Source: Escherichia coli
Lineage (GTDB): Bacteria > Pseudomonadota > Gammaproteobacteria > Enterobacterales > Enterobacteriaceae
Strand: one strand, 5' to 3'
DNA: 64,000 bases
Assembly: GCF_022846255.1 (NCBI RefSeq)
Contig: NZ_AP025682.1
The notes under the pieces were generated by a model that was not told where the DNA came from, made no database searches, and saw only the letters and a list, made by a program, of their open reading frames with translations. Each line of letters starts with the position of its first letter. Within the stretch, counting starts at the first letter, position 1. Positions 7,030 to 48,149 of this stretch are shown here, piece by piece. The translations under genes and the position numbers were made by a program.

Positions 7030-9474
7030 ATGCCAACACCGACCATCATCAAAACACTCGCCACCCACCGCGAAAAACCGTTCGTCAGCGTCGTCACGCC
7101 AACCTGGAACCGCGGCGCATTCCTGCCGTACCTGCTTTATATGTACCGCTATCAGGACTACCCGGCAGACCGCCGCGAACTGGTCATCCTCGACGATTCC
7201 CCGCAAAGCCATCAACACATCATCGACCGCCTGACCAATGGCACGCCGGAGTCCTTCAACATCCGCTACATCCATCACCCGGAAAAACTGCCGCTGGGCA
7301 AAAAACGCAACATGCTCAACGAACTGGCGCGCGGCGAATACATCCTCTGCATGGACGATGACGACTACTACCCGGCAGATAAAATCTCTTACACCATCGC
7401 TATGATGCAAAAAAACCGGGCGCTCATCTCCGGTTCCGACCAGATCCCCATCTGGTACAGCCACATCAATCGCATCTTTCAAAGCCGCAGCTTCGGCCCG
7501 CATAACATCCTCAACGGCACCTTTTGCTATCACCGTAACTACCTGAAAAAGCACCGCTACGATGACGATTGCAATTTAGGCGAAGAGAAAAGTTTCACCG
7601 ACAATTTCAGCGCTAACCCGCTACAACTGCCCGGCGAGCGCACGATTTTGTGTATCTCGCACAGCCACAACACCTTTGATAAAGACTTTATCCTCGGGGC
7701 CAGCACGCCTGTAAACGCGGCGCTTACGGATATCGTCAGCGATCCGCTGCTACGCAACGCTTATCTGGGTCTGCATAACGCCACTCATTATCAGGCGATC
7801 CAGCATCAGGCGATCGATCAGATCGTTCTGCTGAATCTGGATAAACGCCCGGATCGCTTACAGCAGATCCGTGAAGAACTGACATTGCTGCATATTCCGC
7901 CTGAGAAGATCACCCGCCTTGCCGCCAGTGAAAATGAAAACGGTCAACGGGGCCGCCAGCAATCACACTTGCAGGCGCTGCATCTGGCGCAACAGCACGG
8001 CTGGCAAAACTATCTGCTGCTGGAAGATGACGCGGTTATTCTCAAACAGGAGAAACATATTCAGGTGCTGAACGCGCTGCTGGCGAGCCTGGCGAAAATT
8101 CCCTGGCAGGTGATGATCCTCGGCGGCGAAATTTCGCAGGGAACGATGCTAAAAAGTTTGCCTGGGCTGGTGCACGCGCGGGACTGCCGCAAAGTGTGCG
8201 CTTATCTGGTGAACAGCCGCTACTACCTGCAGCTGGCGCAGCAGATGAACAACGATGAGCATTCGCTGGAAGGCGGCTGGCAGCCGCTGCTGCGCACCGA
8301 CAAATGGCTGGCCTGTTACCCGAGCCTTTGTTATCAGCGACCGGGCTTTAGTGATATCGAGAAAAAAGCGACTGATAACATTAACCACTACTTCAATAAG
8401 TTACCCGTAGCCACCAAGCCATCTACATTACCTATCGCCGATACCATCGGCTTTTTTATGGAAACCTCATTCCACTACGCGCTCTACCGCCCAATCATCA
8501 CTGCCCTACAGGCGCAAGGACAAAGCTGCACGCTGGTGATCAACGACCGCGTGTTTAAACCGTTTCTGGATGAAATGCTGAATACGTTAAAAAGCATCGA
8601 CGATCCACAGCTCAAAGGAATGCGCTTATCGGAAATGCAGGCACACGGTCAGCGAGTAAAATGCCTGGTCAGCCCCTATCACACGCCTGCGCTCAGTGGC
8701 CTTTCCCCCCTGAACATTCGCGCCATGTACGGCTTAGCCAAAGAAACGTGGAACCACGCCGACTGGAACCGTTTTTATCAGCGCATTTTGTGTTACAGCC
8801 ACTACAGTCAGCGGGCGCTGGCACATTTCGGCAGCGCAAAAGTGGTCGGCAACCCACGCTTCGACGCCTGGCATAACGGCACGTTCGACCGCGCTCTGCC
8901 GGAAAATATCCAACCCGATTCCCGTAAACCTACGGTGCTCTATGCCCCCACGTTTGGCGCATTAAGCTCCCTGCTCCACTGGGCAGAAAAATTGGGGCGT
9001 TTGAGCGGCGATGTGAACCTGATTTGCAAACTGCACCACGGCACCTGCTCGCGCCCGGAAGAAGCCGCATCGCTGGCACTGGCGCGCAGGCATTTAAAAC
9101 AGCGCACCGACTCTGCCCGCCACACGCTGGCGCTACTGGCAAAGGCCGATTACGTGCTCACCGATAACAGCGGGTTTATTTTCGATGCTATCCACGTTGA
9201 TAAACGGGTGATCCTGCTCGACTTTCCGGGCATGACGGAACTGCTCGACGGTGAGAAAAGCTACTCCACGGCAGAGAGCGCCGACCAGCGAATCCGCGAA
9301 ATATTGCCGGTGGCTCATGATGTTGCGGAACTGCGTTACTTATTGTCAGAGGTATTTGACTGGGGGGCGGTTCAGACGCGGCTTACGGAAATTCGCCATC
9401 ACTATTGCGATGCGTTTATGGATGGCAAGGCGGGAGAACGAGCGGCGTTGGTGATTGTGGAGGCGTTGGGGTAA
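7030..9474 (+). CDS. Multidomain glycosyltransferase: N-terminal GT2-like, central GT25-like, C-terminal CDP-glycerol glycerophosphotransferase (TagB/TagF)-like
   Basis: N-terminus VSVVTPTWNR...LDDS and ILCMDDDDYY (GT-A/GT2 signatures); C-terminus VLYAPTF and VLTDNSGFIFDAIHVDKRVILL resemble TagF-family motifs; ORF from 6958, likely ATG at 7030. Confidence 0.6.
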   Translation: MPTPTIIKTLATHREKPFVSVVTPTWNRGAFLPYLLYMYRYQDYPADRRELVILDDSPQSHQHIIDRLTNGTPESFNIRYIHHPEKLPLGKKRNMLNELARGEYILCMDDDDYYPADKISYTIAMMQKNRALISGSDQIPIWYSHINRIFQSRSFGPHNILNGTFCYHRNYLKKHRYDDDCNLGEEKSFTDNFSANPLQLPGERTILCISHSHNTFDKDFILGASTPVNAALTDIVSDPLLRNAYLGLHNATHYQAIQHQAIDQIVLLNLDKRPDRLQQIREELTLLHIPPEKITRLAASENENGQRGRQQSHLQALHLAQQHGWQNYLLLEDDAVILKQEKHIQVLNALLASLAKIPWQVMILGGEISQGTMLKSLPGLVHARDCRKVCAYLVNSRYYLQLAQQMNNDEHSLEGGWQPLLRTDKWLACYPSLCYQRPGFSDIEKKATDNINHYFNKLPVATKPSTLPIADTIGFFMETSFHYALYRPIITALQAQGQSCTLVINDRVFKPFLDEMLNTLKSIDDPQLKGMRLSEMQAHGQRVKCLVSPYHTPALSGLSPLNIRAMYGLAKETWNHADWNRFYQRILCYSHYSQRALAHFGSAKVVGNPRFDAWHNGTFDRALPENIQPDSRKPTVLYAPTFGALSSLLHWAEKLGRLSGDVNLICKLHHGTCSRPEEAASLALARRHLKQRTDSARHTLALLAKADYVLTDNSGFIFDAIHVDKRVILLDFPGMTELLDGEKSYSTAESADQRIREILPVAHDVAELRYLLSEVFDWGAVQTRLTEIRHHYCDAFMDGKAGERAALVIVEALG

Positions 9475-19083: not shown

Positions 19084-19866
19084 ATGCGCACAAGCGACGT
19101 TACGCAACTGATGGATCTGGCGCTGGGGCTGTGGTTTCCCTTCGTGCGCATTATGGCGTTTCTGCGCTATATGCCGGTGCTGGATAACAGCGCCCTGACC
19201 GCGCGCGTGCGGATTATTTTGTCGCTGGCGCTGGCGATCATCATCACGCCGTTGATCCCCCATCCCATTCCCCACGACCTGCTTTCGCTCAATAGCCTGA
19301 TCCTGACGGTAGAGCAAATTTTATGGGGCATGTTGTTCGGGCTGATGTTTCAGTTTCTGTTTCTGGCGCTGCAACTGGCCGGGCAAATTCTCTCGTTCAA
19401 TATGGGGATGAGCATGGCGGTGATGAACGACCCGAGCAGCGGCGCATCGACCACTGTGCTGGCAGAGTTAATTAACGTTTACGCGATCCTGCTGTTTTTT
19501 GCCATGGACGGGCATCTGCTGCTGGTAAGCGTGCTGTATAAGGGTTTCACCTACTGGCCGATTGGCAACGCCCTGCATCCGCAAACCCTGCGCACCATCG
19601 CGCTGGCCTTTAGCTGGGTGCTGGCGTCGGCATCGCTGCTGGCGCTGCCGACCACTTTTATCATGCTGATTGTGCAGGGCTGCTTTGGCCTGCTCAACCG
19701 CATTGCGCCGCCGCTGAACCTTTTTTCTCTTGGCTTTCCTATCAACATGCTGGCGGGGCTGGTCTGCTTCGCCACCCTGCTCTACAACCTGCCGGATCAC
19801 TATCTGCATCTGGCGAATTTTGTGTTGCAGCAACTCGACGCGCTGAAAGGTCACTATGGCGGATAG
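19084..19866 (+). CDS. lfiR: Flagellar export apparatus protein FliR
   Basis: Polytopic membrane protein; likely ATG at 19084 immediately after the fliQ stop (ORF track starts at 19033). Confidence 0.8.
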   Translation: MRTSDVTQLMDLALGLWFPFVRIMAFLRYMPVLDNSALTARVRIILSLALAIIITPLIPHPIPHDLLSLNSLILTVEQILWGMLFGLMFQFLFLALQLAGQILSFNMGMSMAVMNDPSSGASTTVLAELINVYAILLFFAMDGHLLLVSVLYKGFTYWPIGNALHPQTLRTIALAFSWVLASASLLALPTTFIMLIVQGCFGLLNRIAPPLNLFSLGFPINMLAGLVCFATLLYNLPDHYLHLANFVLQQLDALKGHYGG

Positions 19867-20995
19867 CAGCAGCGAAGAAAAAACAGAGAAACCCTCGGCG
19901 CAAAAGCTGCGTAAAGCGCGTGAAGAGGGGCAGCTACCGCGCTCGAAGGATATGGGGCTGGCGGCGAGCCTGTTTGCAGCGTTTGTGGTGATCTCCAGTA
20001 GTTTTCCGTGGTATGCCGATTTTGTGCGCGAGAGTTTTATCAGCGTGCATCAGTACGCACAGGAGATTAATAACCCGCAGGTGATCGGTCAGTTTCTGCG
20101 CCATCACCTGTTAATTCTCGGCAAGTTTATCCTTACGTTGCTGCCGATGCCCGCCGCCGCACTGCTCTCCTCACTGGTGCCCGGCGGCTGGCTGTTTCTG
20201 CCGAAAAAAATCCTCCCGGATTTCAGCAAAATCAGCCCGTTAAAAGGCATTGGGCGACTGTTTTCCAGCGAACATCTGGCGGAAACGGGGAAGATGACAG
20301 TGAAGTCGGTGGTGGTGCTGGTAATGCTGTGGGTAAGCCTGCGCAATAACTTTGCCGCCTTTCTCGGCCTGCAGGCGCTGCCGTTCAAACTGGCGATGAA
20401 TGATGGATTATCGCTCTACGCCAGCGTGATGCGCAACTTTGTCATCCTGTTTATCTTCTTTGCGTTAATCGACGTGCCGCTGGCGAAAGCCCTGTTCACC
20501 AAAGGGCTGAAGATGACCAAGCAGGAGCTGAAAGAAGAGTACAAAAATCAGGAAGGCAAGCCGGAAGTGAAGGCGCGCGTGCGGCGGCTGCAACGGCAAC
20601 TGGCGATGGGGCAAATTCGCAAAGTGGTGCCGAAAGCCAACGTGGTGATCACCAACCCGACCCACTACGCCGTGGCGTTACAGTATGACTCATCACGTGC
20701 CGCCGCACCGTTTGTGGTGGCGAAAGGCACCGATGAAATCGCCCTCTATATTCGCCAGGTCGCCACTGAAAATCAGGTGGAAGTGGTGGAGTTCCCGCGA
20801 CTCGCGCGCTCGGTTTACTACACCACCCAGGTGAACCAGCAAATTCCGTTTCAGCTTTACCGGGCCATCGCCCACGTTCTGACCTACATCCTGCAAATGA
20901 AACACTGGCGCGAGGGCGCACAGCCGCGCCCGGCCCTGAACAGACATATTTCCATTCCCAAAGAGGTACTTAAACTGGATGGCGAAAACAACTAA
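19856..20995 (+). CDS. lfhB: Flagellar export switch protein FlhB
   Basis: 379 aa; N-terminus EKTEKPSAQKLRKAREEGQLPRSKD and the NPTH autocleavage motif (VVITNPTHYAVAL). Confidence 0.9.
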   Translation: MADSSSEEKTEKPSAQKLRKAREEGQLPRSKDMGLAASLFAAFVVISSSFPWYADFVRESFISVHQYAQEINNPQVIGQFLRHHLLILGKFILTLLPMPAAALLSSLVPGGWLFLPKKILPDFSKISPLKGIGRLFSSEHLAETGKMTVKSVVVLVMLWVSLRNNFAAFLGLQALPFKLAMNDGLSLYASVMRNFVILFIFFALIDVPLAKALFTKGLKMTKQELKEEYKNQEGKPEVKARVRRLQRQLAMGQIRKVVPKANVVITNPTHYAVALQYDSSRAAAPFVVAKGTDEIALYIRQVATENQVEVVEFPRLARSVYYTTQVNQQIPFQLYRAIAHVLTYILQMKHWREGAQPRPALNRHISIPKEVLKLDGENN

Positions 20996-23072
20996 ATCGT
21001 TCCTCGCGCCGCTGCGCGGCGGCAATCTCGGCGTGCCGTTGGTGATCCTGTGTATTCTGGCGATGGTTATTCTGCCGCTGCCGCCTGCGCTGCTGGATAT
21101 TCTGTTCACCTTCAACATTGTGCTGGCGGTGATGGTGCTGCTGGTGGCCGTGTCGGCGAAAAGGCCGCTGGAATTCAGCCTGTTCCCGACCATTTTGCTG
21201 ATCACCACCTTAATGCGTCTGACGCTTAACGTTGCTTCTACGCGCGTGGTGCTGCTACACGGGCATCTCGGCGCGGGCGCGGCGGGTAAGGTGATTGAGT
21301 CGTTTGGTCAGGTGGTGATTGGCGGCAACTTTGTCGTCGGTTTCGTGGTATTTATCATCCTGATGATCATCAACTTTATCGTCGTAACCAAGGGGGCCGA
21401 GCGTATTTCCGAGGTTTCTGCCCGCTTTACCCTGGACGCGATGCCCGGCAAACAGATGGCGATTGACGCCGATCTTAACGCCGGGTTGATCAACCAGACG
21501 CAGGCGCAAACCCGGCGTAAAGATGTCGCCAGCGAGGCCGATTTCTACGGCGCAATGGACGGGGCATCAAAATTTGTGCGCGGGGACGCCATCGCCGGGA
21601 TGATGATTCTGGCGATCAACCTGATCGGCGGCGTCTGTATCGGCATCTTCAAATACAACCTGAGCGCCGACGCCGCCTTCCAGCAATATGTGCTGATGAC
21701 TATCGGCGATGGGCTGGTGGCGCAAATCCCTTCCCTGCTGCTCTCCACCGCGGCGGCGATTATCGTCACCCGCGTCAGCGATAACGGTGATATCGCCCAT
21801 GACGTGCGTAATCAGTTGCTGGCAAGCCCGTCGGTTCTCTACACCGCCACTGGAATTATGTTCGTGCTGGCGGTGGTGCCGGGAATGCCGCATTTCCCGT
21901 TCCTGATGTTCAGCGCCCTGCTTGGTTTTACCGGCTGGCGGATGAGCAAGCGCCCGCAAGCGGCGGAGGCGGAAGAGAAAAGCCTCGAAACGCTAACCCG
22001 TACGATGACAGAAACCAGCGAGCAACAGGTCAGTTGGGAAACTATTCCGCTGATCGAACCTATCAGTTTAAGCCTCGGCTACAAACTGGTGGCGCTGGTG
22101 GATAAAGCGCAGGGCAACCCGCTCACCCAGCGTATTCGCGGCGTACGTCAGGTGATTTCCGACGGCAACGGCGTGCTGCTGCCGGAGATCCGTATTCGGG
22201 AAAACTTCCGTCTCAAGCCCAGCCAGTACGCCATTTTCATCAACGGCATTAAGGCTGATGAAGCGGATATTCCGGCGGATAAACTGATGGCCCTGCCCTC
22301 CAGCGAAACCTACGGCGAGATTGACGGCGTACTGGGGAATGACCCGGCATATGGGATGCCGGTCACCTGGATTCAGCCTGCGCAGAAAGCGAAGGCGCTG
22401 AATATGGGGTATCAGGTGATCGACAGCGCCAGCGTGATTGCCACCCATGTGAACAAGATTGTGCGCAGCTATATTCCTGACCTCTTTAACTATGACGATA
22501 TTACGCAGTTGCATAACCGCCTGTCGTCGATGGCACCGCGACTGGCGGAAGATTTGAGCGCGGCACTCAATTACAGCCAATTGCTGAAAGTGTACCGGGC
22601 GCTGCTGACCGAAGGCGTTTCCCTGCGCGATATCGTCACCATCGCCACCGTGCTGGTCGCCAGTAGTGCGGTGACCAAAGATCATATTCTGCTGGCGGCA
22701 GATGTGCGCCTGGCGCTGCGGCGCAGCATTACCCATCCGTTCGTTCGCAAGCAGGAGCTGACGGTGTATACGCTGAATAATGAGCTGGAAAATCTGCTGA
22801 CCAACGTGGTGAATCAGGCGCAACAGGCCGGCAAAGTGATGCTCGACAGCGTGCCAGTGGACCCGAATATGCTCAACCAGTTCCAGAGTACGATGCCGCA
22901 GGTAAAAGAGCAGATGAAAGCGGCGGGGAAAGATCCGGTGCTGCTGGTGCCTCCGCAGCTGCGCCCTTTGCTGGCGCGCTATGCAAGGTTGTTTGCGCCG
23001 GGGCTGCATGTGCTGTCGTATAACGAAGTGCCGGATGAGTTGGAGTTGAAGATAATGGGGGCGTTGAGTTGA
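20979..23072 (+). CDS. lfhA: Flagellar export gate protein FlhA
   Basis: 697 aa; FHxxK-type N-terminal TM region and large cytoplasmic domain. Confidence 0.9.
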   Translation: MAKTTKSFLAPLRGGNLGVPLVILCILAMVILPLPPALLDILFTFNIVLAVMVLLVAVSAKRPLEFSLFPTILLITTLMRLTLNVASTRVVLLHGHLGAGAAGKVIESFGQVVIGGNFVVGFVVFIILMIINFIVVTKGAERISEVSARFTLDAMPGKQMAIDADLNAGLINQTQAQTRRKDVASEADFYGAMDGASKFVRGDAIAGMMILAINLIGGVCIGIFKYNLSADAAFQQYVLMTIGDGLVAQIPSLLLSTAAAIIVTRVSDNGDIAHDVRNQLLASPSVLYTATGIMFVLAVVPGMPHFPFLMFSALLGFTGWRMSKRPQAAEAEEKSLETLTRTMTETSEQQVSWETIPLIEPISLSLGYKLVALVDKAQGNPLTQRIRGVRQVISDGNGVLLPEIRIRENFRLKPSQYAIFINGIKADEADIPADKLMALPSSETYGEIDGVLGNDPAYGMPVTWIQPAQKAKALNMGYQVIDSASVIATHVNKIVRSYIPDLFNYDDITQLHNRLSSMAPRLAEDLSAALNYSQLLKVYRALLTEGVSLRDIVTIATVLVASSAVTKDHILLAADVRLALRRSITHPFVRKQELTVYTLNNELENLLTNVVNQAQQAGKVMLDSVPVDPNMLNQFQSTMPQVKEQMKAAGKDPVLLVPPQLRPLLARYARLFAPGLHVLSYNEVPDELELKIMGALS

Positions 23073-30552: not shown

Positions 30553-31770
30553 AGAGTCAGGGTAAGACTACGAAAGCCCGCTCCCAGCAAGGACTGACGC
30601 CAGGTAGTTTCTGTCCATGGCTGCTTTTCGCATCTTACGTCTTAACCCTGCCTTGAATACATTATCATTCGTTAAAATATTAATAGCGATGTGCCGTATC
30701 CCTGAAAATAATTCTGCTGCATTTCCTCTTCTTATTTTGCAGTCGTCTTCATTCATTACCACGTCCAGACGCCAGTGCAGCTTATTCTCCACGTGCCAGT
30801 GGTTTCGGATTGCTGTGGCGAACTTCTCTGCGGTTAAATCAGCAGAACTGATATAATATCTGACCGTCATTTCTGGCTCTTTCTTTTGTTCTGCTATTAT
30901 TGACCGAAAGGAGACTGCCACGCATAATTTCTTCAGACCTTTCCATTCAAACATGAAATCAATAAGTTCATCAGGGACATCGCAAACAATGTGAAGACGG
31001 ATTTCTTCTCTGCCGTGACTTTTTTCACTAATTGCGTAACTGTCATGCTCTGGATTATTTAATTCTTTCAGTGGGAATTTTTCCTCAAAGGCTTTATTAA
31101 GCCGCCCCTGATTTCCTTTTACAGCGAATAAATAATCACCGCCCTGTTTTTGTATCTTCTCTGCGATATCTTTCTGGCAACCCATCGCATCAGTTGTGAT
31201 AATTTTTCCTTTAATATCCAACATGTTAAGAAGTTCATGGATAGCTGTGATCTCATTGGATTTCTCATCCGTCCTGATCTGTCCGATGACCAGACTGTGC
31301 ATTGTTGAGAACGCACTAATGACATGAATCGCTCCCCTGCGGCGACTCTTGTCATAAGAATGCCGGAGCGTTTTTCCATCAATTGCAATAACGTCTTTAT
31401 CATCTGAAGAATGGCAGTCACGCATCCAGTTAATAAAGCACTCGTGAAATTTTGCAGGACTGATACAGGATACAACTCTGGCAATGGTATCGTGAACAGG
31501 AATACCATTTTCAAAATCACCATATTGCTTCAAAAAATCGAGATGTGTTTCCCCAAAATCCTCTATATCTTCCCAGCCTTCTGCACCAGAAATAACGGCA
31601 CAAATAGTCAACAGTAGAATACCCGATAATTTATGTTCCACTTTCCAGGCTTGTCTGTAATCGGGGATAATAGAAATATGTTCCATCAATTTTTTAAGTT
31701 CCATTTTGTTCTACTTAATTATGTAAGGAGTATTTGATCATGTATACGCAATAAAAAACAGCTTCAGGTA
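30553..31770 (-). mobile_element. H-repeat (H-rpt) element, ISAs1-family, copy A (intact)
   Basis: 1214-bp unit directly repeated at 31767-32985; encodes a 378-aa DDE transposase-like H-repeat-associated protein. Confidence 0.8.
30568..31704 (-). CDS. H-repeat-associated protein / ISAs1-family transposase
   Basis: 378 aa, [27 protein letters not shown]..., resembles the YhhI/YdcC H-rpt protein family. Confidence 0.85.
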
Positions 31771-32985
31771 ACAGGGCAAGATTACGAAAGCCCGCTCCCC
31801 GCAAGGACTGACGCCAGATAGTTTCTGTCCATGGCTGCTTTTCGCATCTTACGTCTTAACCCTGCCTTGAATACCTTATCATTCGTCAAAATATTAATAG
31901 CGATGTGCCGTATCCCTGAAAATAATTCTGCTGCATTTCCTCTTCTTATTTTGCAGTCGTCTTCATTCATTACCACGTCCAGACGCCAGTGCAGCTTATT
32001 CTCCACGTGCCAGTGGTTTCGGATTGCTGTGGCGAACTTCTCTGCGGTTAAATCAGCAGAACTGATATAATATCTGACCGTCATTTCTGGCTATTTCTTT
32101 TGTTCTGCTATTATGGACCGAAAGGAGACTGCCACGCATAATTTCTTCAGTCCTTTCCATTCAAACGTGAAATCAATAAGTTCATCAGGGACATCGCAAA
32201 CAATATGAAGACGGATTTCTTCTCTGCCGTGACTTTTTTCACTAATTGCGTAACTGTCATGCTCTGGATTATTCAATTCTTTCAGCGGAAATTTTTCCTC
32301 GAAGGCTTTATTTAGCCGCCCCTGGTTTCCTTTTACAGCGAATAAATAATCACCTCCCTGTTTTTGTATCTTCTCTGCAATATCTTTCTGGCAACCCATC
32401 GCATCAGTTGTGATGATTTTTCCTTTAATATCCAGCATGTTAAGAAGTTCAGGGATAGCTGTAATTTCATTGGATTTCTCATCCGTCCTGATCTGTCCGA
32501 TGACCAGACTGTGCATTGTTGAGAACGCACTAATGACATGAATCGCTCCCCTGCGGCGACTCTTGTCATAAGAATGTCGGAGCGTTTTTCCATCAATTGC
32601 AATAACGTCTTTATCATCTGAAGAATGGCAGTCACGCATCCAGTTAATAAAGCACTCGTGAAATTTTGCAGGACTGATACAGGATACAACTCTGGCAATG
32701 GTATCGTGAACAGGAATACCATTTTCAAAATCACCATATTGCTTCAAAAAATCGAGATGTGTTTCCCCAAAATCCTCTATATCTTCCCAGCCTTCTGCAC
32801 CAGAAATAACGGCACAAATAGTCAACAGTAGAATATCCGATAATTTATGTTCCACTTTCCAGGCTTGTCTGTAATCGGGGATAATAGAAATATGTTCCAT
32901 CAATTTTTTAAGTACCATTTTGTTCTCCTTAATTATGTAAGGAGTATTTGATCATGTATAAGCAATAAAAAACAGCTTCAGGTAA
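31767..32985 (-). mobile_element. H-repeat element copy B (tandem direct repeat of copy A)
   Basis: Near-identical to copy A with a 1214-bp offset, flanking sequence included. Confidence 0.8.
31782..32918 (-). pseudogene. H-repeat-associated transposase gene disrupted by a nonsense mutation
   Basis: GAG to TAG change at 32091-32093 relative to copy A splits the ORF into 275-aa and 100-aa pieces. Confidence 0.8.
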
Positions 32986-33147
32986 TGAGGAATATCTCAA
33001 TTTTTAAACATAAAATGCGAATTATTTAGTACAAAAAAGCAGCGTTACGTGATCTTTCCCTGACTGTGTAGGAAAACAGGTTTCCAAGCCCTTCCGAACC
33101 ATTCATGCCTGCAAACAAAAGCAGCTGCGGCGGCACCGCACTACCAC

Positions 33148-33468
33148 TTACTGTGACGTTATGCGCCCCGGACCACCGGCAGCAAGCGACGCCGCCGCAT
33201 CCTGAACTGCACCAGCCATATCCGAGATCCCTGCTGCTGCAGCGGCAGCCTGCGCAGCAGCTACTGCTGCTTTAACCAGACCTGACGGTTCCGGCAACGC
33301 ACCAAACAGGTCCGCCGCTGCCTGTTCTGCCATCTCCTCGGCGGCACCAGATACATCGGTTACGGCTGAACCTGTGCTCATACCGCCACTTTCGCCAGCT
33401 ATTGGTGGTGTGGTGATGACGGGTCCACCGTTTCCAGCTGGTTTGTTACCCGTAGATACAAAACTCAT
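33148..33468 (-). CDS. Hypothetical Ala/Gly-rich small protein
   Basis: 106-aa ORF, low-complexity composition; coding status uncertain. Confidence 0.3.
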
Positions 33469-33492
33469 GATATTTATTCCTTTAATATCGGA

Positions 33493-33864
33493 TTAGAATT
33501 TAGCGCCCGGCTGCCAGAAAAAATAAGAAATAACCCGCCACTGTCCATCTTTATAATGAAAAAAACATGTCAGATTTAAATCCCCCCGCAAATGCCAAAA
33601 CATTTCTTTGATGGGAATATTTCTGAATTCAGTATTCGTTGAGCGATAGGTGTTTTCAATTTCTATATAATACTCACCGACAAATTTATAACGAGGCTTT
33701 ATAAATTCATACGCTGGCTGACCATAGTTATTTAATAGAACATTCTCTTCAACTCCATTATACACACCACTCGCATTCAGATAAGCATGCCCAGGAATAT
33801 CAGACATGCTATTTTTCGCCCCACCCACTATCAAAAAAATTATCACAGCGTATATTAGTTTCAT
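33493..33864 (-). CDS. Small secreted protein, candidate immunity protein for the upstream zincin-like protein
   Basis: N-terminal signal peptide (MKLIYAVIIFLIVGGA); 4-nt overlap with the upstream gene. Confidence 0.5.
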   Translation of the reverse strand: MKLIYAVIIFLIVGGAKNSMSDIPGHAYLNASGVYNGVEENVLLNNYGQPAYEFIKPRYKFVGEYYIEIENTYRSTNTEFRNIPIKEMFWHLRGDLNLTCFFHYKDGQWRVISYFFWQPGAKF

Positions 33865-34601
33865 TTTTTTACGCTTTTCACAAAAAAATTAGAACCCGGA
33901 ACCATTCTATTTAACCGCTCAATGACATTTCTCATATAACGAGAGCGCAGTTCCATACCAATATTCATTAACGCACTGGCGTCCCCGGAGAATGGTGTAG
34001 TTGCTTTATCTGCATCATCACTATAGTATTCATCAGCAAGATATCCAATAATATGCCCAAGCTCGTGAGACAGCCCTATTTGCTCATGGCAAACTTTTGA
34101 TGAGCCAAGACATTTAGCTGCTGCAACTATATCTTTAGAGTCAAGTTCAACGTATCGACTATTCCAGACAATGGAACTCTGTCGAAAACTATTTGGATCA
34201 TCATTATCAATTTTAAACACCACCACATCCCAATACCCATGACGATCAGTCTGAATTATTTCTATTGAGAAAGATAAATCCTTACCATTAAACTTACTGG
34301 CAAACTCAGACTTCCCAGAAACGGATAAAAAAATCTTATTATTCCATGTTTGATTAATGACAAAAATAACTTTCCCATGAAAGGCATTTTTCTCCAAATC
34401 TGTCCAGTCAGTTTTTGCATCCCATCTTTTTATCCAATTATATTTCCATCTCAGCAACAATGAGATTGCACCATTTTCACGGTCAATTCTTAAATCTCCC
34501 CAGGCATCATTGTCCCTGATATATCGTTTATCCAGCATTAAGTCGTCATAAGCATCGTATGCCTGCTGAATAGCTTCATCATGAGAGTCACCCATGTTCA
34601 C
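33861..34601 (-). CDS. Putative zinc metallopeptidase (HExxH zincin), candidate T6SS effector
   Basis: HELGHIIGYLADEY motif; located in the T6SS effector array and paired with a signal-peptide protein. Confidence 0.5.
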   Translation of the reverse strand: MNMGDSHDEAIQQAYDAYDDLMLDKRYIRDNDAWGDLRIDRENGAISLLLRWKYNWIKRWDAKTDWTDLEKNAFHGKVIFVINQTWNNKIFLSVSGKSEFASKFNGKDLSFSIEIIQTDRHGYWDVVVFKIDNDDPNSFRQSSIVWNSRYVELDSKDIVAAAKCLGSSKVCHEQIGLSHELGHIIGYLADEYYSDDADKATTPFSGDASALMNIGMELRSRYMRNVIERLNRMVPGSNFFVKSVKK

Positions 34602-34802
34602 CTCCTTATATTGCTATATATCCAATAAACCTGAAGATGCTTGCTTACCCACCAACGCAGACGGGACCAAGGGTAGCCTGAAGTCAACAGATAGCAGTCA
34701 ACTTGAAGTTCATGGGGATATTTGTTTCCCCATCTACACGTTTATCGTCATATTTTTGTATAGCTATTCTCAGCATTCGTGGGTAGATTATTTTTTTCCA
34801 AC

Positions 34803-34915
34803 CGCAGCGCATCCACATACCGCCCCTCGCTGTTCTGCTGCCACAACCAGCCCTGCCCCTGCTGCGCCTGCGTTAACATTTTTGCTAGCCAGCACGGTCA
34901 CGGCAGGCAATTCCA
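34803..34915 (-). repeat. Degenerate duplicate of the 3' end of tagF
   Basis: ~76 bp near-identical to 35897-35972, then a diverged related stretch; direct orientation. Confidence 0.75.
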
Positions 34916-34924
34916 TGACAGGTA

Positions 34925-35398
34925 CTACTCATCCGTACAACCCAGCCCCCGGCGCTGAACCACTTCACTGGCAAACGTAGCTCCGGTTTTTTTCATTATT
35001 CCTTTTTGTATTTTTTGCAGCGCGGGAAATGAGATTCTCCTGCATGAATCCTCTTCCCATATATCACCAGTTACAGGACTAACTGAAAATAGTCCCCACA
35101 CATCTGTCGCTCCGGCGGAAGGAGAATCATAACCTACCCCAAAACTAAAATACCCAGGATGATACAGGTTACCTTTTTTATCTTTCAGAGAACCGTCAAG
35201 AAAAAACCCAGACAATTCCACATTATATTTTTCATTTTTTAGTGAAAAAACCAATAATGCCTGCGCCTGTATTTCAGTAAGACCTGACTGGTTAACAGTC
35301 GTTAGATCAAACCGCGGCACATTCCTGATAAGAATTTCAGCACAACAATTCACGGACACGACCATGAAAAGCAATACTGATATTAATTTACAGGACAT
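34925..35398 (-). CDS. Secreted protein, candidate immunity protein for the GH73-like effector
   Basis: Signal peptide (MSCKLISVLLFMVVSVNC); overlaps the upstream effector-like gene. Confidence 0.5.
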   Translation of the reverse strand: MSCKLISVLLFMVVSVNCCAEILIRNVPRFDLTTVNQSGLTEIQAQALLVFSLKNEKYNVELSGFFLDGSLKDKKGNLYHPGYFSFGVGYDSPSAGATDVWGLFSVSPVTGDIWEEDSCRRISFPALQKIQKGIMKKTGATFASEVVQRRGLGCTDE

Positions 35399-35853
35399 GT
35401 TATTCTCCGCTTAACCATATTAATCACCCACACTAACTCACTAGCATAACCGGTATGGCCGCCATTACTGTTTTTACCTGAATTAAAACCAGAATCAATC
35501 AATGCCTGCGCAAATTGCTCCGGAGATTTTTTATTTCTGACCGCATTACCAAATCGGATTGCAAAGGACTTTCCGCTAGTTGAAAAAAAGGTATAAGTGG
35601 CAACCCACACTTGATTACTCCCCAGCGGGTGAACCTGTCCTGACTGTAAAGGTGCCGGACCATGCATGGAAAAGTAGTTATTGTATTCTGTCGCGATTCT
35701 ACCCTGCCCGTAAAAGGACTCCTTTGCAGCAAGCCCCAGGATATTTTCCACAGGCACATCAAGTTGCTTAGCGATTAATTCACATTCTTTCAGATATTGC
35801 TGTACAAACCTGACTGCACCAGTGTTATTACAGGCTTTATCATAAGACCCCAT
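35383..35853 (-). CDS. Glucosaminidase (GH73/FlgJ-like) domain protein, candidate T6SS peptidoglycan glycoside hydrolase effector
   Basis: LGLAAKESFYGQGRIATEYNNYFSMHG resembles the FlgJ/GH73 catalytic region; no signal peptide; small (156 aa). Confidence 0.55.
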   Translation of the reverse strand: MGSYDKACNNTGAVRFVQQYLKECELIAKQLDVPVENILGLAAKESFYGQGRIATEYNNYFSMHGPAPLQSGQVHPLGSNQVWVATYTFFSTSGKSFAIRFGNAVRNKKSPEQFAQALIDSGFNSGKNSNGGHTGYASELVWVINMVKRRITCPVN

Positions 35854-35880
35854 GATTCACTACTCCTTGTCTGATTATTT

Positions 35881-36651
35881 TTAATGCGGCCGGATATCCA
35901 GCCGCAACGCATCCACATACCGCCCCTCGCTGTTCTGCTGCCAGAACCAGCCCTGCCCCTGCTGCGCCTGCGTCAGCATTTTGTCCGGCCAGCCCGGCCA
36001 CGGCAGGTGGCGCACACCGGGCAGTTCCACTACCGGCACGTCCGGCAGGCCGGTGAGTTCCCGGCTACGCTGCGGTACACGTCGTAAGCCGCGTAGCCAC
36101 TGCGCCCAGCGCGGCCCCGGTCGCCACATCGCCCAGAGCTGGTCTGTCTGCTCCGCCAGTCGACCGCAGCGTTCTGTCTGTGGTGAGACATGAGCTGCCG
36201 TCAACTGCGCCAGCCAGTACAGCCAGCCCTGTGTGTCATCCAGGCTCTCTTCCAGCCATTCCCGCCCGACACGCTGGTAAATCACCAGTGGCCACGGCCT
36301 GCCCGTACTGTCACGCGAGGCGGTCAGGACCCCGGTCAGCCACTCATCGCGCCCGCCAATGGGGAGAAATCCCGGCGACAGCACAAAACTCCACGGCAAT
36401 GGGTGGTGCTCCGGTAGTGCCGTTTTCTCACGTGGTGACAGGTGCATCCAGCCGTCATTTGTTCCGGCCTTCGCAGCATCCGTTCCTTCCGGCAGAACAA
36501 TATGCCGTCCCTGTCCCAGCCACGTTTGCTGGTTCAGCCACGCCTGCCACACCTGCCCTTCGTTCGCGCTCACTCGCCAGCGCACATAGTCCCGCTGGTC
36601 CGGCAGTCTGCCGAACATCGCCGGGGCCGATATCTCTGCCCGGCGCATCAC
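35881..36651 (-). CDS. tagF: T6SS-associated protein TagF (DUF2094 family)
   Basis: N-terminal FGRLPDQRDYVRWR resembles the TagF GKLPxxGDFVxR signature; Trp-rich; follows tssM as in SPI-6-type clusters. Confidence 0.6.
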   Translation of the reverse strand: MMRRAEISAPAMFGRLPDQRDYVRWRVSANEGQVWQAWLNQQTWLGQGRHIVLPEGTDAAKAGTNDGWMHLSPREKTALPEHHPLPWSFVLSPGFLPIGGRDEWLTGVLTASRDSTGRPWPLVIYQRVGREWLEESLDDTQGWLYWLAQLTAAHVSPQTERCGRLAEQTDQLWAMWRPGPRWAQWLRGLRRVPQRSRELTGLPDVPVVELPGVRHLPWPGWPDKMLTQAQQGQGWFWQQNSEGRYVDALRLDIRPH

Positions 36652-36836
36652 AACGTCCTTACCGGACAGGTGAAGTTTTTCAGCAATTCCCGGTAATACA
36701 GAACATAATTCTTCATTTCAATAATAAAGTCAGATATCAGGATTAATTTTCTTCCACAGGAATCAGAGCATTTATAATAAAATCGCTCAGGCATCCCCCC
36801 AACAAAGAGAACAGGAATCAGCTTCCAATAAAATTG

Positions 36837-37313
36837 TTAATTCAGTTCCCAGAACCAGATTTCCTTGCAGCTAAAATAGCAATGTGAATGACATATAGCA
36901 CCTGTGGTAGAAGGCTCAATAAGATCTATATGACCGCCACCGTAACCCGTAATTTTCCAGAAAAAGACCACTCCTCTTTTATTACTGGTGTCTGTTTTAA
37001 ATTTTTCTGAGTCACACCAGATAACTGGTCTTCCAAAAACATCAGCTCGGGAAAGCTGATCTGCCAGTAATTTCGCACCGGTTTCTATTTTCTTCCCTTT
37101 CCAGTCACCACTTTTGATCGTCAGTCGCCCGTTAAAGCTGACGCCTGATTTAATCAGCGCCAGACTCATACGTGTGGCACAGGTATTTACATAACCAGCA
37201 TTTTGCTGTTGCAGTGCTTCATAGTTATAACCCACTTCACTGTACAAAACATCACCATCAATCTGAACTGATGAGTAATGGTTTTTTTTAAGTGTGAAAA
37301 ATGAAGGTTTCAT
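36837..37313 (-). CDS. Tae4-like type VI amidase effector (papain-like Cys/His peptidoglycan amidase)
   Basis: AGYVNTCATRMSLAL (Cys) and GGGHIDLIEP (His) resemble the Tae4 catalytic motifs as I recall them; 158 aa, no signal peptide. Confidence 0.55.
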   Translation of the reverse strand: MKPSFFTLKKNHYSSVQIDGDVLYSEVGYNYEALQQQNAGYVNTCATRMSLALIKSGVSFNGRLTIKSGDWKGKKIETGAKLLADQLSRADVFGRPVIWCDSEKFKTDTSNKRGVVFFWKITGYGGGHIDLIEPSTTGAICHSHCYFSCKEIWFWELN

Positions 37314-38005
37314 TTATTATTTCCTTTATCACAGGAGTGTTTACTTAGTGCCTCAATAATAATATTTGCAGCCCGTTCATTCAGTTTATCTGACGTTTTT
37401 TTTCTGAAATACCAGTAAATAATCTCATCCAGTGTAACTGTTTTAATCGTTTTATAATCGCACCATGTTTTTCTTTCCGTGGCATCTTCTATACCCAAAA
37501 GATAGATTTTCGCATTAAGCCTATCCTGCCTGTTATCTGACTGCCAGAAGCGGAAAAAATCATCTCCGTTCAGATCGAACGCGCCAGAGGTCAGGTGTGA
37601 AACAGATGAATGCCGGGGAGATTTTTTTTCCGGTGATGCCATATCCGGGCAGGGAAACAGCCTGACCATCGCTTGTTCAATCAGAGTTGAAGCTCGCATA
37701 TTCATATCGTTAACCGACTGCTGATTAAGATATGTCAGTACCGATGAATAAAGTTCTATTTCATTAATCTTATTATATCCACACCAGGTTTTACTTTCTG
37801 TCGCATCACTCACACCAAGGACATACATCAGAACATTTTCTTTTTCCTGTGACGTTCCACGAGCATAAAATGACAAAAATTCCTGCGCACTGAGATTAAT
37901 ATAATCGGGGTCAATAGTTCCTGTGTTTTTTCTGATATCAGCAAAAACATTTCCTGACATGGCATATAACAAAAAAATAATAAAAAAACGCGTATATTGT
38001 TGCAT
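37310..38005 (-). CDS. Secreted tandem-repeat protein, candidate immunity protein (two ~100-aa repeats each with paired Cys)
   Basis: Signal peptide; internal duplication (VLGVSDATESKTWCGYNKI... / LLGIEDATERKTWCDYKTI...). Confidence 0.5.
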   Translation of the reverse strand: MQQYTRFFIIFLLYAMSGNVFADIRKNTGTIDPDYINLSAQEFLSFYARGTSQEKENVLMYVLGVSDATESKTWCGYNKINEIELYSSVLTYLNQQSVNDMNMRASTLIEQAMVRLFPCPDMASPEKKSPRHSSVSHLTSGAFDLNGDDFFRFWQSDNRQDRLNAKIYLLGIEDATERKTWCDYKTIKTVTLDEIIYWYFRKKTSDKLNERAANIIIEALSKHSCDKGNNK

Positions 38006-47276: not shown

Positions 47277-47729
47277 CTATTTACATGTCACAGATACCGA
47301 TGACTCTCCTGGTACCCGCTGCCCCGGCAAAGAAGATGCCTGGCACTGTGTCGCCAATGCAGGGACCGGTTGTGATAACCAAACCTGTCCATGGTTATAA
47401 ATACAGGAAACCCAGTAACGTTCACTATTCTGATTACTGGCCATTGTGGTATCCCATATTTGCCTGGTTTCACCCTTTATTGTCTCTGTCTCTGGTTTTA
47501 GATCCACCCGATTTTCAGGTTTTCCCTGCGACATCCCTACCCCGTCCAACCACAGACGGGGTTCATAGCGGGAAGATCTCTGCCACGATGCAGATATATC
47601 TGGCTCCAGTACTGTTGTTGAGGATTTTATATTGATAAACACGGGGCAACTGACTTCCCACGCAGTAACAAATTGTGAATAAAACAACATAAAACCCAAC
47701 AACAGAGAAAAAATAAAACGTGTCCCCAT
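47277..47729 (-). CDS. Secreted Cys-containing protein, candidate immunity protein
   Basis: Signal peptide (MGTRFIFSLLLGFMLFYSQFVTA); follows a small effector-like ORF. Confidence 0.45.
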   Translation of the reverse strand: MGTRFIFSLLLGFMLFYSQFVTAWEVSCPVFINIKSSTTVLEPDISASWQRSSRYEPRLWLDGVGMSQGKPENRVDLKPETETIKGETRQIWDTTMASNQNSERYWVSCIYNHGQVWLSQPVPALATQCQASSLPGQRVPGESSVSVTCK

Positions 47730-47741
47730 TGAATCTATCCT

Positions 47742-48149
47742 CTACTCAATAATATAAAAAGCTTCCGCATTATTACTGGCATCAGGATATGTTCCATCGC
47801 TGCGCATTCCACCTTTTCGGGAAATAGGGCGTGCAGAGACTTTCGTGGTTTTACCTGTCCACTGGTCCATAACATAAATATACTGACTATCCTGTTCCAG
47901 ATAGAAAGCGGCATGCTTATGCTCATTCTGCCTCGAGGGATACTTTCCGTTAACAAAAGTGGCAATTGCTGTTCCTCTGGGGATCGATTTATCCCCAAAA
48001 ACCTTTCGCCCCTGCTTCCAGGCTCCAGTATTCCCCACATGTGCATATACCTGAACTAAGAACACACATTCCTTTCTGTCTCCTGCCCCCGCCATTCCCA
48101 CCATGTCAGTGCCCTGCAATGAATCTACCAGTCCATAAACATATGCCAT
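47742..48149 (-). CDS. Small putative T6SS effector (unassigned family) between tssC and hcp
   Basis: 135 aa, no signal peptide, single Cys (ECVFLV) and His cluster (NEHKH); sits where SPI-6-type clusters carry tae/tai cassettes. Confidence 0.4.
   Translation of the reverse strand: MAYVYGLVDSLQGTDMVGMAGAGDRKECVFLVQVYAHVGNTGAWKQGRKVFGDKSIPRGTAIATFVNGKYPSRQNEHKHAAFYLEQDSQYIYVMDQWTGKTTKVSARPISRKGGMRSDGTYPDASNNAEAFYIIE

Follow-up and report, generated by a model that had tools for sequence, protein, structure and literature searches.

A metzincin-like protein and its exported partner form a candidate type VI secretion effector/immunity module in the tagF-vgrG slot of Escherichia coli

Our study concerns three consecutive open reading frames (ORFs) on the minus strand of a chromosomal segment of Escherichia coli (contig NZ_AP025682.1; 64,000 nucleotides, hereafter the window) that also encodes a type VI secretion system (T6SS). 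The first, at 33861-34601, encodes a zincin-like protein of 246 amino acids if read from a GTG. The real product is probably the 244-residue form starting at the ATG at 34595 (33861..34595), because a Shine-Dalgarno sequence (AAGGAGG, 34601..34607, minus strand, read from the sequence) lies 5 nucleotides upstream of this ATG and overlaps the GTG. RefSeq annotates the identical protein of strain E04 as 244 amino acids, and those of other strains likewise, and we use this numbering throughout. The second ORF (33493..33864) encodes a partner of 123 amino acids, and its start overlaps the stop of the zincin gene by 4 nucleotides (ATGA, 33861-33864). The third (33148-33468) encodes 106 residues rich in alanine and glycine. 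An earlier note on this DNA had described these ORFs as a possible toxin/immunity pair followed by a third ORF, with an HExxH motif and no signal peptide in the first protein and a signal peptide in the second. The three ORFs are all present, and so are the features of the first two. The N terminus of the zincin is not hydrophobic (maximum 12-residue Kyte-Doolittle hydropathy of 0.50), and that of the partner is (maximum of 3.07, at residues 3-14).

The HExxH motif, HELGHIIGYLADEY, occupies residues 177-190 of the zincin (34026..34067, minus strand) and reads H177-E178-L-G-H181-I-I-G184-Y-L-A-D188-E-Y190. It is not there by chance, because H177, E178 and H181 are invariant in all 120 members of an alignment of homologues whose identity to the window protein is only 22-76%. 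Conservation in this alignment, from which all our residue counts are drawn, extends to D188 and E189 (118 members each), Y190 (116), D205 (110), R217 (109) and R219 (115). Between the zinc motif and a C-terminal helix (residues 218-231) lies a probable Met-turn, A-L-M210-N (33963..33974, minus strand), with the family consensus S-I-M-N-x-G. Methionine is found at position 210 in 100 members and leucine in 13; serine occupies position 208 in 104, asparagine position 211 in 99 and glycine position 213 in 118. Upstream of the motif, Cys162 and Cys169 (34089..34112, minus strand) are invariant in the close clade. Across residues 155-176, 80 members have no cysteine, 31 have two and only 9 have one, which is the pattern expected if the two residues form, as is probable, a disulfide pair that is gained or lost as a unit.

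The AlphaFold model obtained from the 120-sequence alignment (pLDDT 91.5, pTM 0.86) predicts the catalytic-domain fold of metzincins, with a five-stranded sheet, a backing helix and an active-site helix, and it places the Met-turn downstream of the third ligand and ahead of the C-terminal helix. A first model, from a shallow alignment of six clusters, scored poorly around the active site (pLDDT 66) and was discarded in its favor. Among known metzincins, the igalysins (MEROPS M64; Thomasclavelia ramosa IgA protease, PDB 3P1V and 4DF9) share with the zincin the six residues from the second histidine to the aspartate, the DxY and the Met-turn. Their motif has been described as HExxHxxxGxxD (PMC12237041): aspartate is the third ligand, the tyrosine two residues on serves as a "tyrosine switch", and a Met-turn is present. 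The motif of the window protein, HExxHxxGxxxD, is one residue longer than the canonical HExxHxxG/NxxH/D and has the spacing of igalysins. In the wider family, the histidine-to-aspartate spacing is five residues, as in the canonical motif, in 34 members, six in 19, and 7-29 in the rest. By analogy, H177, H181 and D188 would hold the zinc, E178 would be the general base, Y190 may assist catalysis as a tyrosine switch, and M210 would provide the Met-turn under the metal site.

This resemblance was not sufficient to assign the zincin to a described family. Igalysins are its best matches in PDB and Pfam, but these matches are insignificant, and we rejected membership of Pfam Peptidase_M64: the alignment covers residues 176-203 only (i-E 0.016, 14.8 bits) and a single one of the 120 homologues reaches E <= 0.001. 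Pfam searches with the zincin alone and with seven sequences returned only sub-threshold matches to M64 (i-E 0.016) and M57 (0.24), and a Pfam scan of all 120 members gave only sub-threshold zincin matches around HExxH (Reprolysin_2/4, M6, M64, M10). Searching PDB with phmmer produced nothing meaningful, and the catalytic domain had no match in NCBIfam, PADLOC or PHROGs. The family of the C-terminal domain of VgrG2b was also rejected, given that neither sequence search matched PDB 6H56, which is absent from the listed fold matches as well; on the side of the PA0261-type immunity protein, the partner found no counterpart in PDB or Pfam. Tox-MPTase2-5, Peptidase_M91 and DUF4157 were discarded because none is among the Pfam matches of the query or of the 120 homologues. 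DUF4157 proteins are only distant structural neighbors in AFDB50 (14-25% identity, TM 0.58-0.70, from rank 36 down). None of these searches pointed to a housekeeping protease family. The zincin is a member of a distinct zinc-protease family that has no Pfam or NCBIfam model.

The family is large. An exhaustive profile search recovered 334 representatives, at 50% identity, with E <= 0.001, including 147 with E <= 1e-10; a word-indexed search had recovered just six clusters (90% identity). Most members are stand-alone proteins of about 215 amino acids. An N-terminal helix (residues 4-24, 34524..34586, minus strand), delimited from the secondary structure of the model and from alignments, is found only in the clades encoded in enterobacterial T6SS clusters (the window protein and our P0002-P0009). 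It is absent from the main clade of about 215 residues, some members of which have other N-terminal extensions. All copies of the E. coli clade are annotated as "hypothetical protein". The AFDB50 fold family is uniformly "uncharacterized"; it includes paralogues of E. coli, Salmonella and Shigella, and proteins of Sphingomonas, Bacteroidota, Sorangium and Planctomycetes, with structural homologues also in Myxococcota and one Firmicute.

A few members have additional domains. Three or four homologues have LysM domains at the N terminus (best E = 6.5e-8) and one has PG_binding_1 (4e-13); both match the wall-binding modules of endolysins. Proteins that join a wall-binding domain to a catalytic domain and lack a signal peptide could be seen as parts of a phage-type endolysin or lysis module, or as housekeeping enzymes of cell-wall remodeling. 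These explanations are largely refuted, and we give them next to no credence. Only the wall-binding domains resemble endolysins: no PHROG family corresponds to the catalytic domain, and a tblastn search of 50,697 phage genomes came back empty, which led us to reject the endolysin reading. Nor is the module a housekeeping one: of 5,426 complete E. coli genomes, only 18 contain it in full (at least 80% cover of a 2-kb query), its guanine-cytosine (GC) content is foreign, and its variation is that of a cassette.

The zincin gene is trailed by a small gene homologous to the window partner in every locus with enough downstream sequence (L003-L009, L012, L014-L017, L019 and L021 in our numbering of loci). 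The partner has 104-145 amino acids in Enterobacteria (L003-L009, L015, L016) and 157 in L012, 125 in L014, 151 in L017, 109 in L019 and 147 in L021. Its homology to the 123-residue protein of the window ranges from blastp E-values of 1.9e-58 to 2.9e-4; the partner in L017 has an hhalign probability of 95.5%, and partners outside the profile model were recovered with hmmsearch (E of 1.8e-12 for L019, 8.9e-9 for L017 and 3.2e-7 for L021). Almost all of them begin with a signal peptide of the AxA type or a putative lipobox, as read from the sequences, and the 4-nucleotide overlap is kept in 8 of the 10 gene-called pairs. The partner itself has no match in Pfam, PDB, NCBIfam or PADLOC. The two genes are under purifying selection: at 50-75% amino-acid identity, the ratio of non-synonymous to synonymous substitution rates (dN/dS) is 0.07-0.32 for the pair and 0.07-0.30 for the partner.

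The fate of the partner in Enterobacter sp. ENT03 (L015, 7965-8527) supports our reading of it as an immunity gene. Only the last 64 codons of a zincin gene remain there and HExxH is gone, but the 123-residue partner has stayed complete, with its 4-nucleotide overlap onto the remnant. It is an orphan immunity gene, if a single example: the toxin decayed and the partner was kept, as immunity genes are. Downstream of this orphan, the same locus has a second complete zincin-partner pair and an unrelated candidate pair of 315 and 90 amino acids.

The zincin might instead target eukaryotic hosts, its partner being a chaperone or an unrelated gene. Many metzincins do cleave host proteins (IgA protease, fragilysin, karilysin), and VgrG2b, a T6SS metallopeptidase to which we return below, was initially described as host-directed. 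We think this very unlikely. An exported partner that co-evolves with the effector is a hallmark of antibacterial effectors acting in the periplasm, and a chaperone exported to the periplasm would have no way to encounter an effector in the cytoplasm. The fusions to LysM and PG_binding_1 point to bacterial walls, and the zincin family is common in environmental bacteria.

The position of the pair in the genome links it to T6SS. Both in the window and in eight other enterobacterial arrangements (L001, L002, L003, L005, L006, L007/8, L015, L016), it is flanked by tagF and vgrG. A tblastn tabulation finds vgrG, or a fragment of it, directly 3' of the pair in the window, in E. coli E04 and VCSW7, in three metagenomic enterobacterial contigs, in Salmonella Okatie, in Enterobacter sp. 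and in Escherichia sp. E1V33. The nine enterobacterial arrangements represent at least four genera (Escherichia, Salmonella, Enterobacter and Superficieibacter). The gene order in intact relatives is tssM - (Tai4/Tae4) - tagF - 244 aa - 123 aa - vgrG (737 aa) - DcrB-like adaptor - Rhs. The module had been thought to stand at the distal end of the effector array, but it fills the usual slot between tagF and vgrG (the "VR2" of SPI-6). Outside Enterobacteria, a distant pair is found on a plasmid of Sphingomonas hankookensis (NZ_CP117027.1, 114 kb; L017/L018, 70.5-81.2 kb) at about 5 kb from a PAAR gene. Its neighbors include, besides PAAR, an effector of 1,092 residues with a DUF4123 domain and two immunity genes, for a SUFU-like protein and for Tri1, and the locus appears to be a plasmid-borne auxiliary island of T6SS effectors. 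Within the enterobacterial clades, the link to T6SS is strong; beyond them it has support in one case and does not hold universally.

Our results suggest that the genes of 244 and 123 codons are probably an antibacterial cargo effector of T6SS, predicted to act in the periplasm, and its immunity protein. The conserved catalytic residues, the predicted metzincin fold, the co-inherited exported partner, the fixed position between tagF and vgrG, and the orphan partner beside a decayed toxin all favor the toxin/immunity pair proposed earlier. The effector is made in the cytoplasm, since its sequence has no signal peptide. It would be loaded on the spike or tube encoded around the module, as its fixed place directly 5' of vgrG suggests; the N-terminal helix, being clade-specific, may speculatively be the loading determinant. 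Delivery would bring it into the periplasm of a neighboring Gram-negative cell, where Cys162 and Cys169 could oxidise, and where it may act as a metzincin-type zinc endopeptidase. The partner would be exported by Sec to the periplasm of the producer and neutralise incoming effector by binding it. Periplasmic action is proposed because the partner is exported, because the cysteines are paired, and because there is a precedent in VgrG2b and PA0261 of Pseudomonas aeruginosa.

The C-terminal metallopeptidase of VgrG2b (Wood et al. 2019, PMC6899460; PDB 6H56) is an HExxH zinc peptidase delivered by T6SS, toxic only in the periplasm and neutralised by an adjacent periplasmic immunity protein, PA0261. 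This pair is the best functional analogue of the zincin and its partner. Other zincins offer partial parallels. Those fused to Rhs (Tox-MPTase4 and Peptidase_M91/Tox-HopH1, in E. coli and Salmonella) are also HExxH toxins of T6SS with a downstream immunity gene, but they are C-terminal domains of PAAR-Rhs proteins, with Pfam families of their own, none of which matches the zincin or its 120 homologues. Snapalysin (M7) is a minimal metzincin with an aspartate ligand, and serralysin with Inh/AprI is a gene pair of metzincin and inhibitor. Unlike the zincin, they leave the cell through Sec or type I systems and do not serve as toxins between bacteria, and we found no sequence relationship between the partner and inhibitors of this type. 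On balance, the pair is likely to be an experimentally uncharacterised representative of the periplasm-acting metallopeptidase effectors of T6SS, within an unnamed metzincin family.

The substrate of the zincin is likely to be in the cell envelope, either the peptides of peptidoglycan or a protein associated with it. The link to peptidoglycan is made because of the fusions to LysM and PG_binding_1 and because neighboring cassettes in the slot belong to families annotated or predicted to target peptidoglycan (the Tae4 family, a Tge2-like protein and a Tlde1 domain). Peptidoglycan itself is a possible, if somewhat doubtful, target. One may go further and propose that the zincin founds a new metzincin family, with an igalysin-like Asp/Tyr zinc site and either peptidoglycan peptides or a single essential envelope protein as its substrate. 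We put this forward tentatively, as rather unlikely to hold in full. If it were true, the partner, with its 90 residues, would be a new fold of metzincin inhibitor, the N-terminal helix would be a new loading signal for T6SS and, if peptidoglycan were cleaved, the zincin would be the first interbacterial toxin to be both an HExxH metzincin and a cell-wall hydrolase.

Several points weigh against an antibacterial effector of T6SS acting on the envelope. The roles given to the residues of the zinc site are proposed from conservation, predicted fold and the analogy with igalysins. The peptidoglycan hypothesis depends on a handful of domain fusions and, to our knowledge, the known metallopeptidases of peptidoglycan belong to other clans, M15 and M23. 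At 28 kDa, the effector is at the upper size for cargo in the Hcp lumen. No adaptor or chaperone specific to it was evident, the vgrG of the window is inactivated, and our search of the literature found no experiment on any member of the zincin family. Finally, fold matches reach phyla where T6SS is not expected, and two modules from non-enterobacterial metagenomes (L012, L014) have no T6SS gene within 8 kb, so the family is not exclusively T6SS cargo. The pair in L012 (1200-8254) stands among NERD, PD-(D/E)xK (REase-ARP) and DUF6933 genes, in what resembles a defence island. A function in anti-phage defence was rejected despite these NERD and PD-(D/E)xK neighbors, as neither the window proteins nor the L012 pair match PADLOC.

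The last two of these points, which for the fold family concern Planctomycetes, Myxococcota, Bacteroidota and one Firmicute, might be explained if the zincin were a protease with a periplasmic inhibitor, like serralysin with Inh/AprI, that leaves the cell by another exit or by lysis and that hitch-hikes in a recombination hotspot at the T6SS locus. Metzincins with dedicated periplasmic inhibitors have precedent. Yet, hitch-hiking does not account well for nine enterobacterial arrangements in which the pair is precisely 5' of vgrG or its fragment, nor for the copy of Sphingomonas near a PAAR/DUF4123 module. The zincin has no signal peptide and there are no type I secretion genes nearby, and the neighboring cassettes belong to known or predicted families of T6SS effectors. 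Hence, we regard this explanation as improbable and favor cargo of T6SS.

The state of the locus in the window raises the question of whether the effector is still delivered there. The third ORF is not an independent gene; it is the 5' part of vgrG and lies outside the module. In this lineage, VgrG opens with the Ala/Gly-rich peptide of that ORF (MSFVSTGNK...), which continues in frame to a gp27-like domain, and the copy of the window is a pseudogene stub (33063..33468, minus strand) with this extension and the first ~35 codons of the gp27-like domain. A 1-nucleotide deletion in a run of G at 33170 creates the stop that ends the 106-residue ORF, and homology to vgrG ends at 33063, as shown by alignment to the intact 737-residue vgrG of strain E04 (L005 also has an intact homologue). 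An intact transposase of the ISAs1 family (30568-31704, minus strand; NCBIfam NF033564, E = 5.4e-124) and ORFs of a broken copy (32091-32918 and 31782-32084, minus strand) follow, and the chromosomal backbone (yafV, ivy, fadE) is immediately beyond them. A deletion associated with these insertion sequences took most of vgrG, the DcrB adaptor and the Rhs genes, and it is because of this loss that the module looks distal.

In the window strain, delivery would therefore need another VgrG or Hcp, or the module may be kept mainly for its immunity gene. According to the latter explanation, the module is stranded, with an effector that is no longer delivered and an immunity gene that protects against kin firing the toxin. 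This is a serious possibility, if not the one we would expect. It fits the frameshifted and truncated vgrG and the loss of the Rhs region, the retention of the pair in decayed islands, and the partner kept beside a toxin remnant in Enterobacter. One such island in E. coli (L009-L011) holds the pair between fragments of TssM/VgrG and VgrG/Rhs, and records of Shigella flexneri in the same 90% cluster contain truncated zincins. On the other hand, the window retains an undamaged effector ORF, 100% identical to the one in E04, a strain with an intact vgrG, and the T6SS core genes of the window, hcp included, all match NCBIfam models. E. coli genomes also commonly carry further vgrG genes elsewhere. 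This explanation bears on the strain rather than on what the module is, and it can stand together with a T6SS cargo effector and its immunity protein.

The Ala/Gly-rich start of VgrG deserves mention in its own right. This extension of about 100 residues, rich in alanine, glycine and serine, is kept in frame across diverged copies (window 33148-33468; L001 7440-9653; L005 1966-3441). N-terminal extensions of VgrG are unusual, because that end of the protein faces the Hcp tube, and this one raises the question of cargo docking.

The module is not entirely new to the literature, and the earlier description of an undescribed effector must be corrected in this respect: homologues in Salmonella were already predicted as candidate cargo effectors. 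Blondel et al. (2023, PMC10469887) listed in the VR2 of SPI-6 two candidates of 243 amino acids, one labeled "Peptidase_M64" (for example NCTC7411_03656) and the other "Reprolysin_4" (for example SESEF3709_03438), each with a bicistronic partner encoded downstream, a candidate immunity protein that has a signal peptide or a transmembrane segment. From bioinformatics alone, they took the two for putative peptidoglycan hydrolases. Amaya et al. (2024) mapped where the "Peptidase_M64" candidate occurs. A supplementary table of PMC12994826, which cites Blondel et al., lists STox_19 "Metallopeptidase" at 198 loci in 164 genomes, with 0 fused and 163 cargo. The Salmonella candidates resemble the window zincin in size (243 and 244 amino acids), in the slot downstream of tssM/tagF and next to Tge2/Tgi2, in the weak Pfam matches to M64 and Reprolysin_4, and in the type of partner. 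Salmonella Okatie (L007/8) has two paralogues of 243 residues (P0158, P0007) that are 40-47% identical to the window zincin over its full length (tblastn), with the same sub-threshold matches to M64 and Reprolysin_4, partners 59-61% identical to that of the window, and the same flanking genes. Matched by size, position and Pfam labels, the published candidates are probably members of the zincin family, and so, given also the citation, is STox_19 (representative EOV2532878.1). The E. coli clade is a separate lineage from that of Salmonella, at about 40-47% identity. We found no paper citing the RefSeq accessions and no direct support for the published label "peptidoglycan hydrolase (amidase)", which is a prediction.

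In the gut, the repertoire of T6SS effectors decides which strains prevail. Few effectors are metallopeptidases that act in the periplasm, and even VgrG2b, the best studied, has no known substrate. The zincin family may be a tractable system to find the substrate of a T6SS zincin and to characterise a new pair of metzincin and inhibitor, as it is compact (about 215-244 residues), widespread and confidently modeled, with catalytic residues that can be mutated and a conserved putative inhibitor. For genome annotation, two "hypothetical proteins" in E. coli, Shigella, Salmonella and Enterobacter become a candidate effector/immunity pair, and the published labels "M64" and "Reprolysin_4" are probably sub-threshold matches to one unnamed family.

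The slot of the module is variable, and the cause of the variability of VR2 has been called unclear (Blondel et al. 2023, PMC10469887). In the window, the slot is bounded upstream by tagF (35881..36651, minus strand; NCBIfam TIGR03373, E = 1.2e-10, above the curated cut-off). Then come genes for a Tge2-like glucosaminidase (35383-35853, minus strand; named from the RefSeq annotation of homologues, a weak FlgJ match and Pfam tags in related loci) and for an immunity protein of the Tgi2PP family (34925-35398, minus strand; from the RefSeq annotation of homologous genes and Pfam tags in related loci). Between the latter and the zincin gene, a 104-bp duplicate of the 3' end of tagF (34797..34900, minus strand) is 89% identical to 35897-36000 in blastn; in strain VCSW7, the corresponding piece appears in RefSeq as a partial TagF pseudogene. 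Tandem modules are found in L007/8, L015 and L016, the last with a fragment of the 5' end of vgrG between modules (8412-8510). These duplicates of tagF 3' and vgrG 5' ends indicate scars of cassette exchange, presumably by homologous recombination via the conserved ends of the two genes. The exact arrangement of the window was not reproduced in any complete E. coli genome of our collection. The zincin and partner genes have 36-38% GC, against 61-65% for tssM and tagF; all effector/immunity cassettes at 33493-37313 have 36-43%, with 32-39% at third codon positions (GC3), which suggests a donor pool of low GC. Scans of 32900-36000 for promoters and terminators were at chance level (9 against 7.9 expected, and 3 against 2.4) and carry no information on transcription.

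Some observations concern other genes of the window. Upstream of the Tae4-like gene (36837-37313), an ORF of 231 amino acids (37310-38005, minus strand) joins two Rap1a/Tai4-like immunity domains in tandem, with the repeat ...LG[VI]xDATExKTWC.Y..., where strain E04 carries Rap1a/Tai genes as two separate units. Between hcp and tssC (47277-48149, minus strand) there are proteins of the BPSL0067 (135 amino acids) and STY0301 (150 amino acids) families, probably the VR1 effector/immunity pair of the cluster and possibly Tae2/Tai2-like. Farther away, FlhB-like and FlhA-like genes beside yafK and gmhA (19856-23072, plus strand) are probably remnants of the Flag-2 lateral flagellar locus of E. coli.

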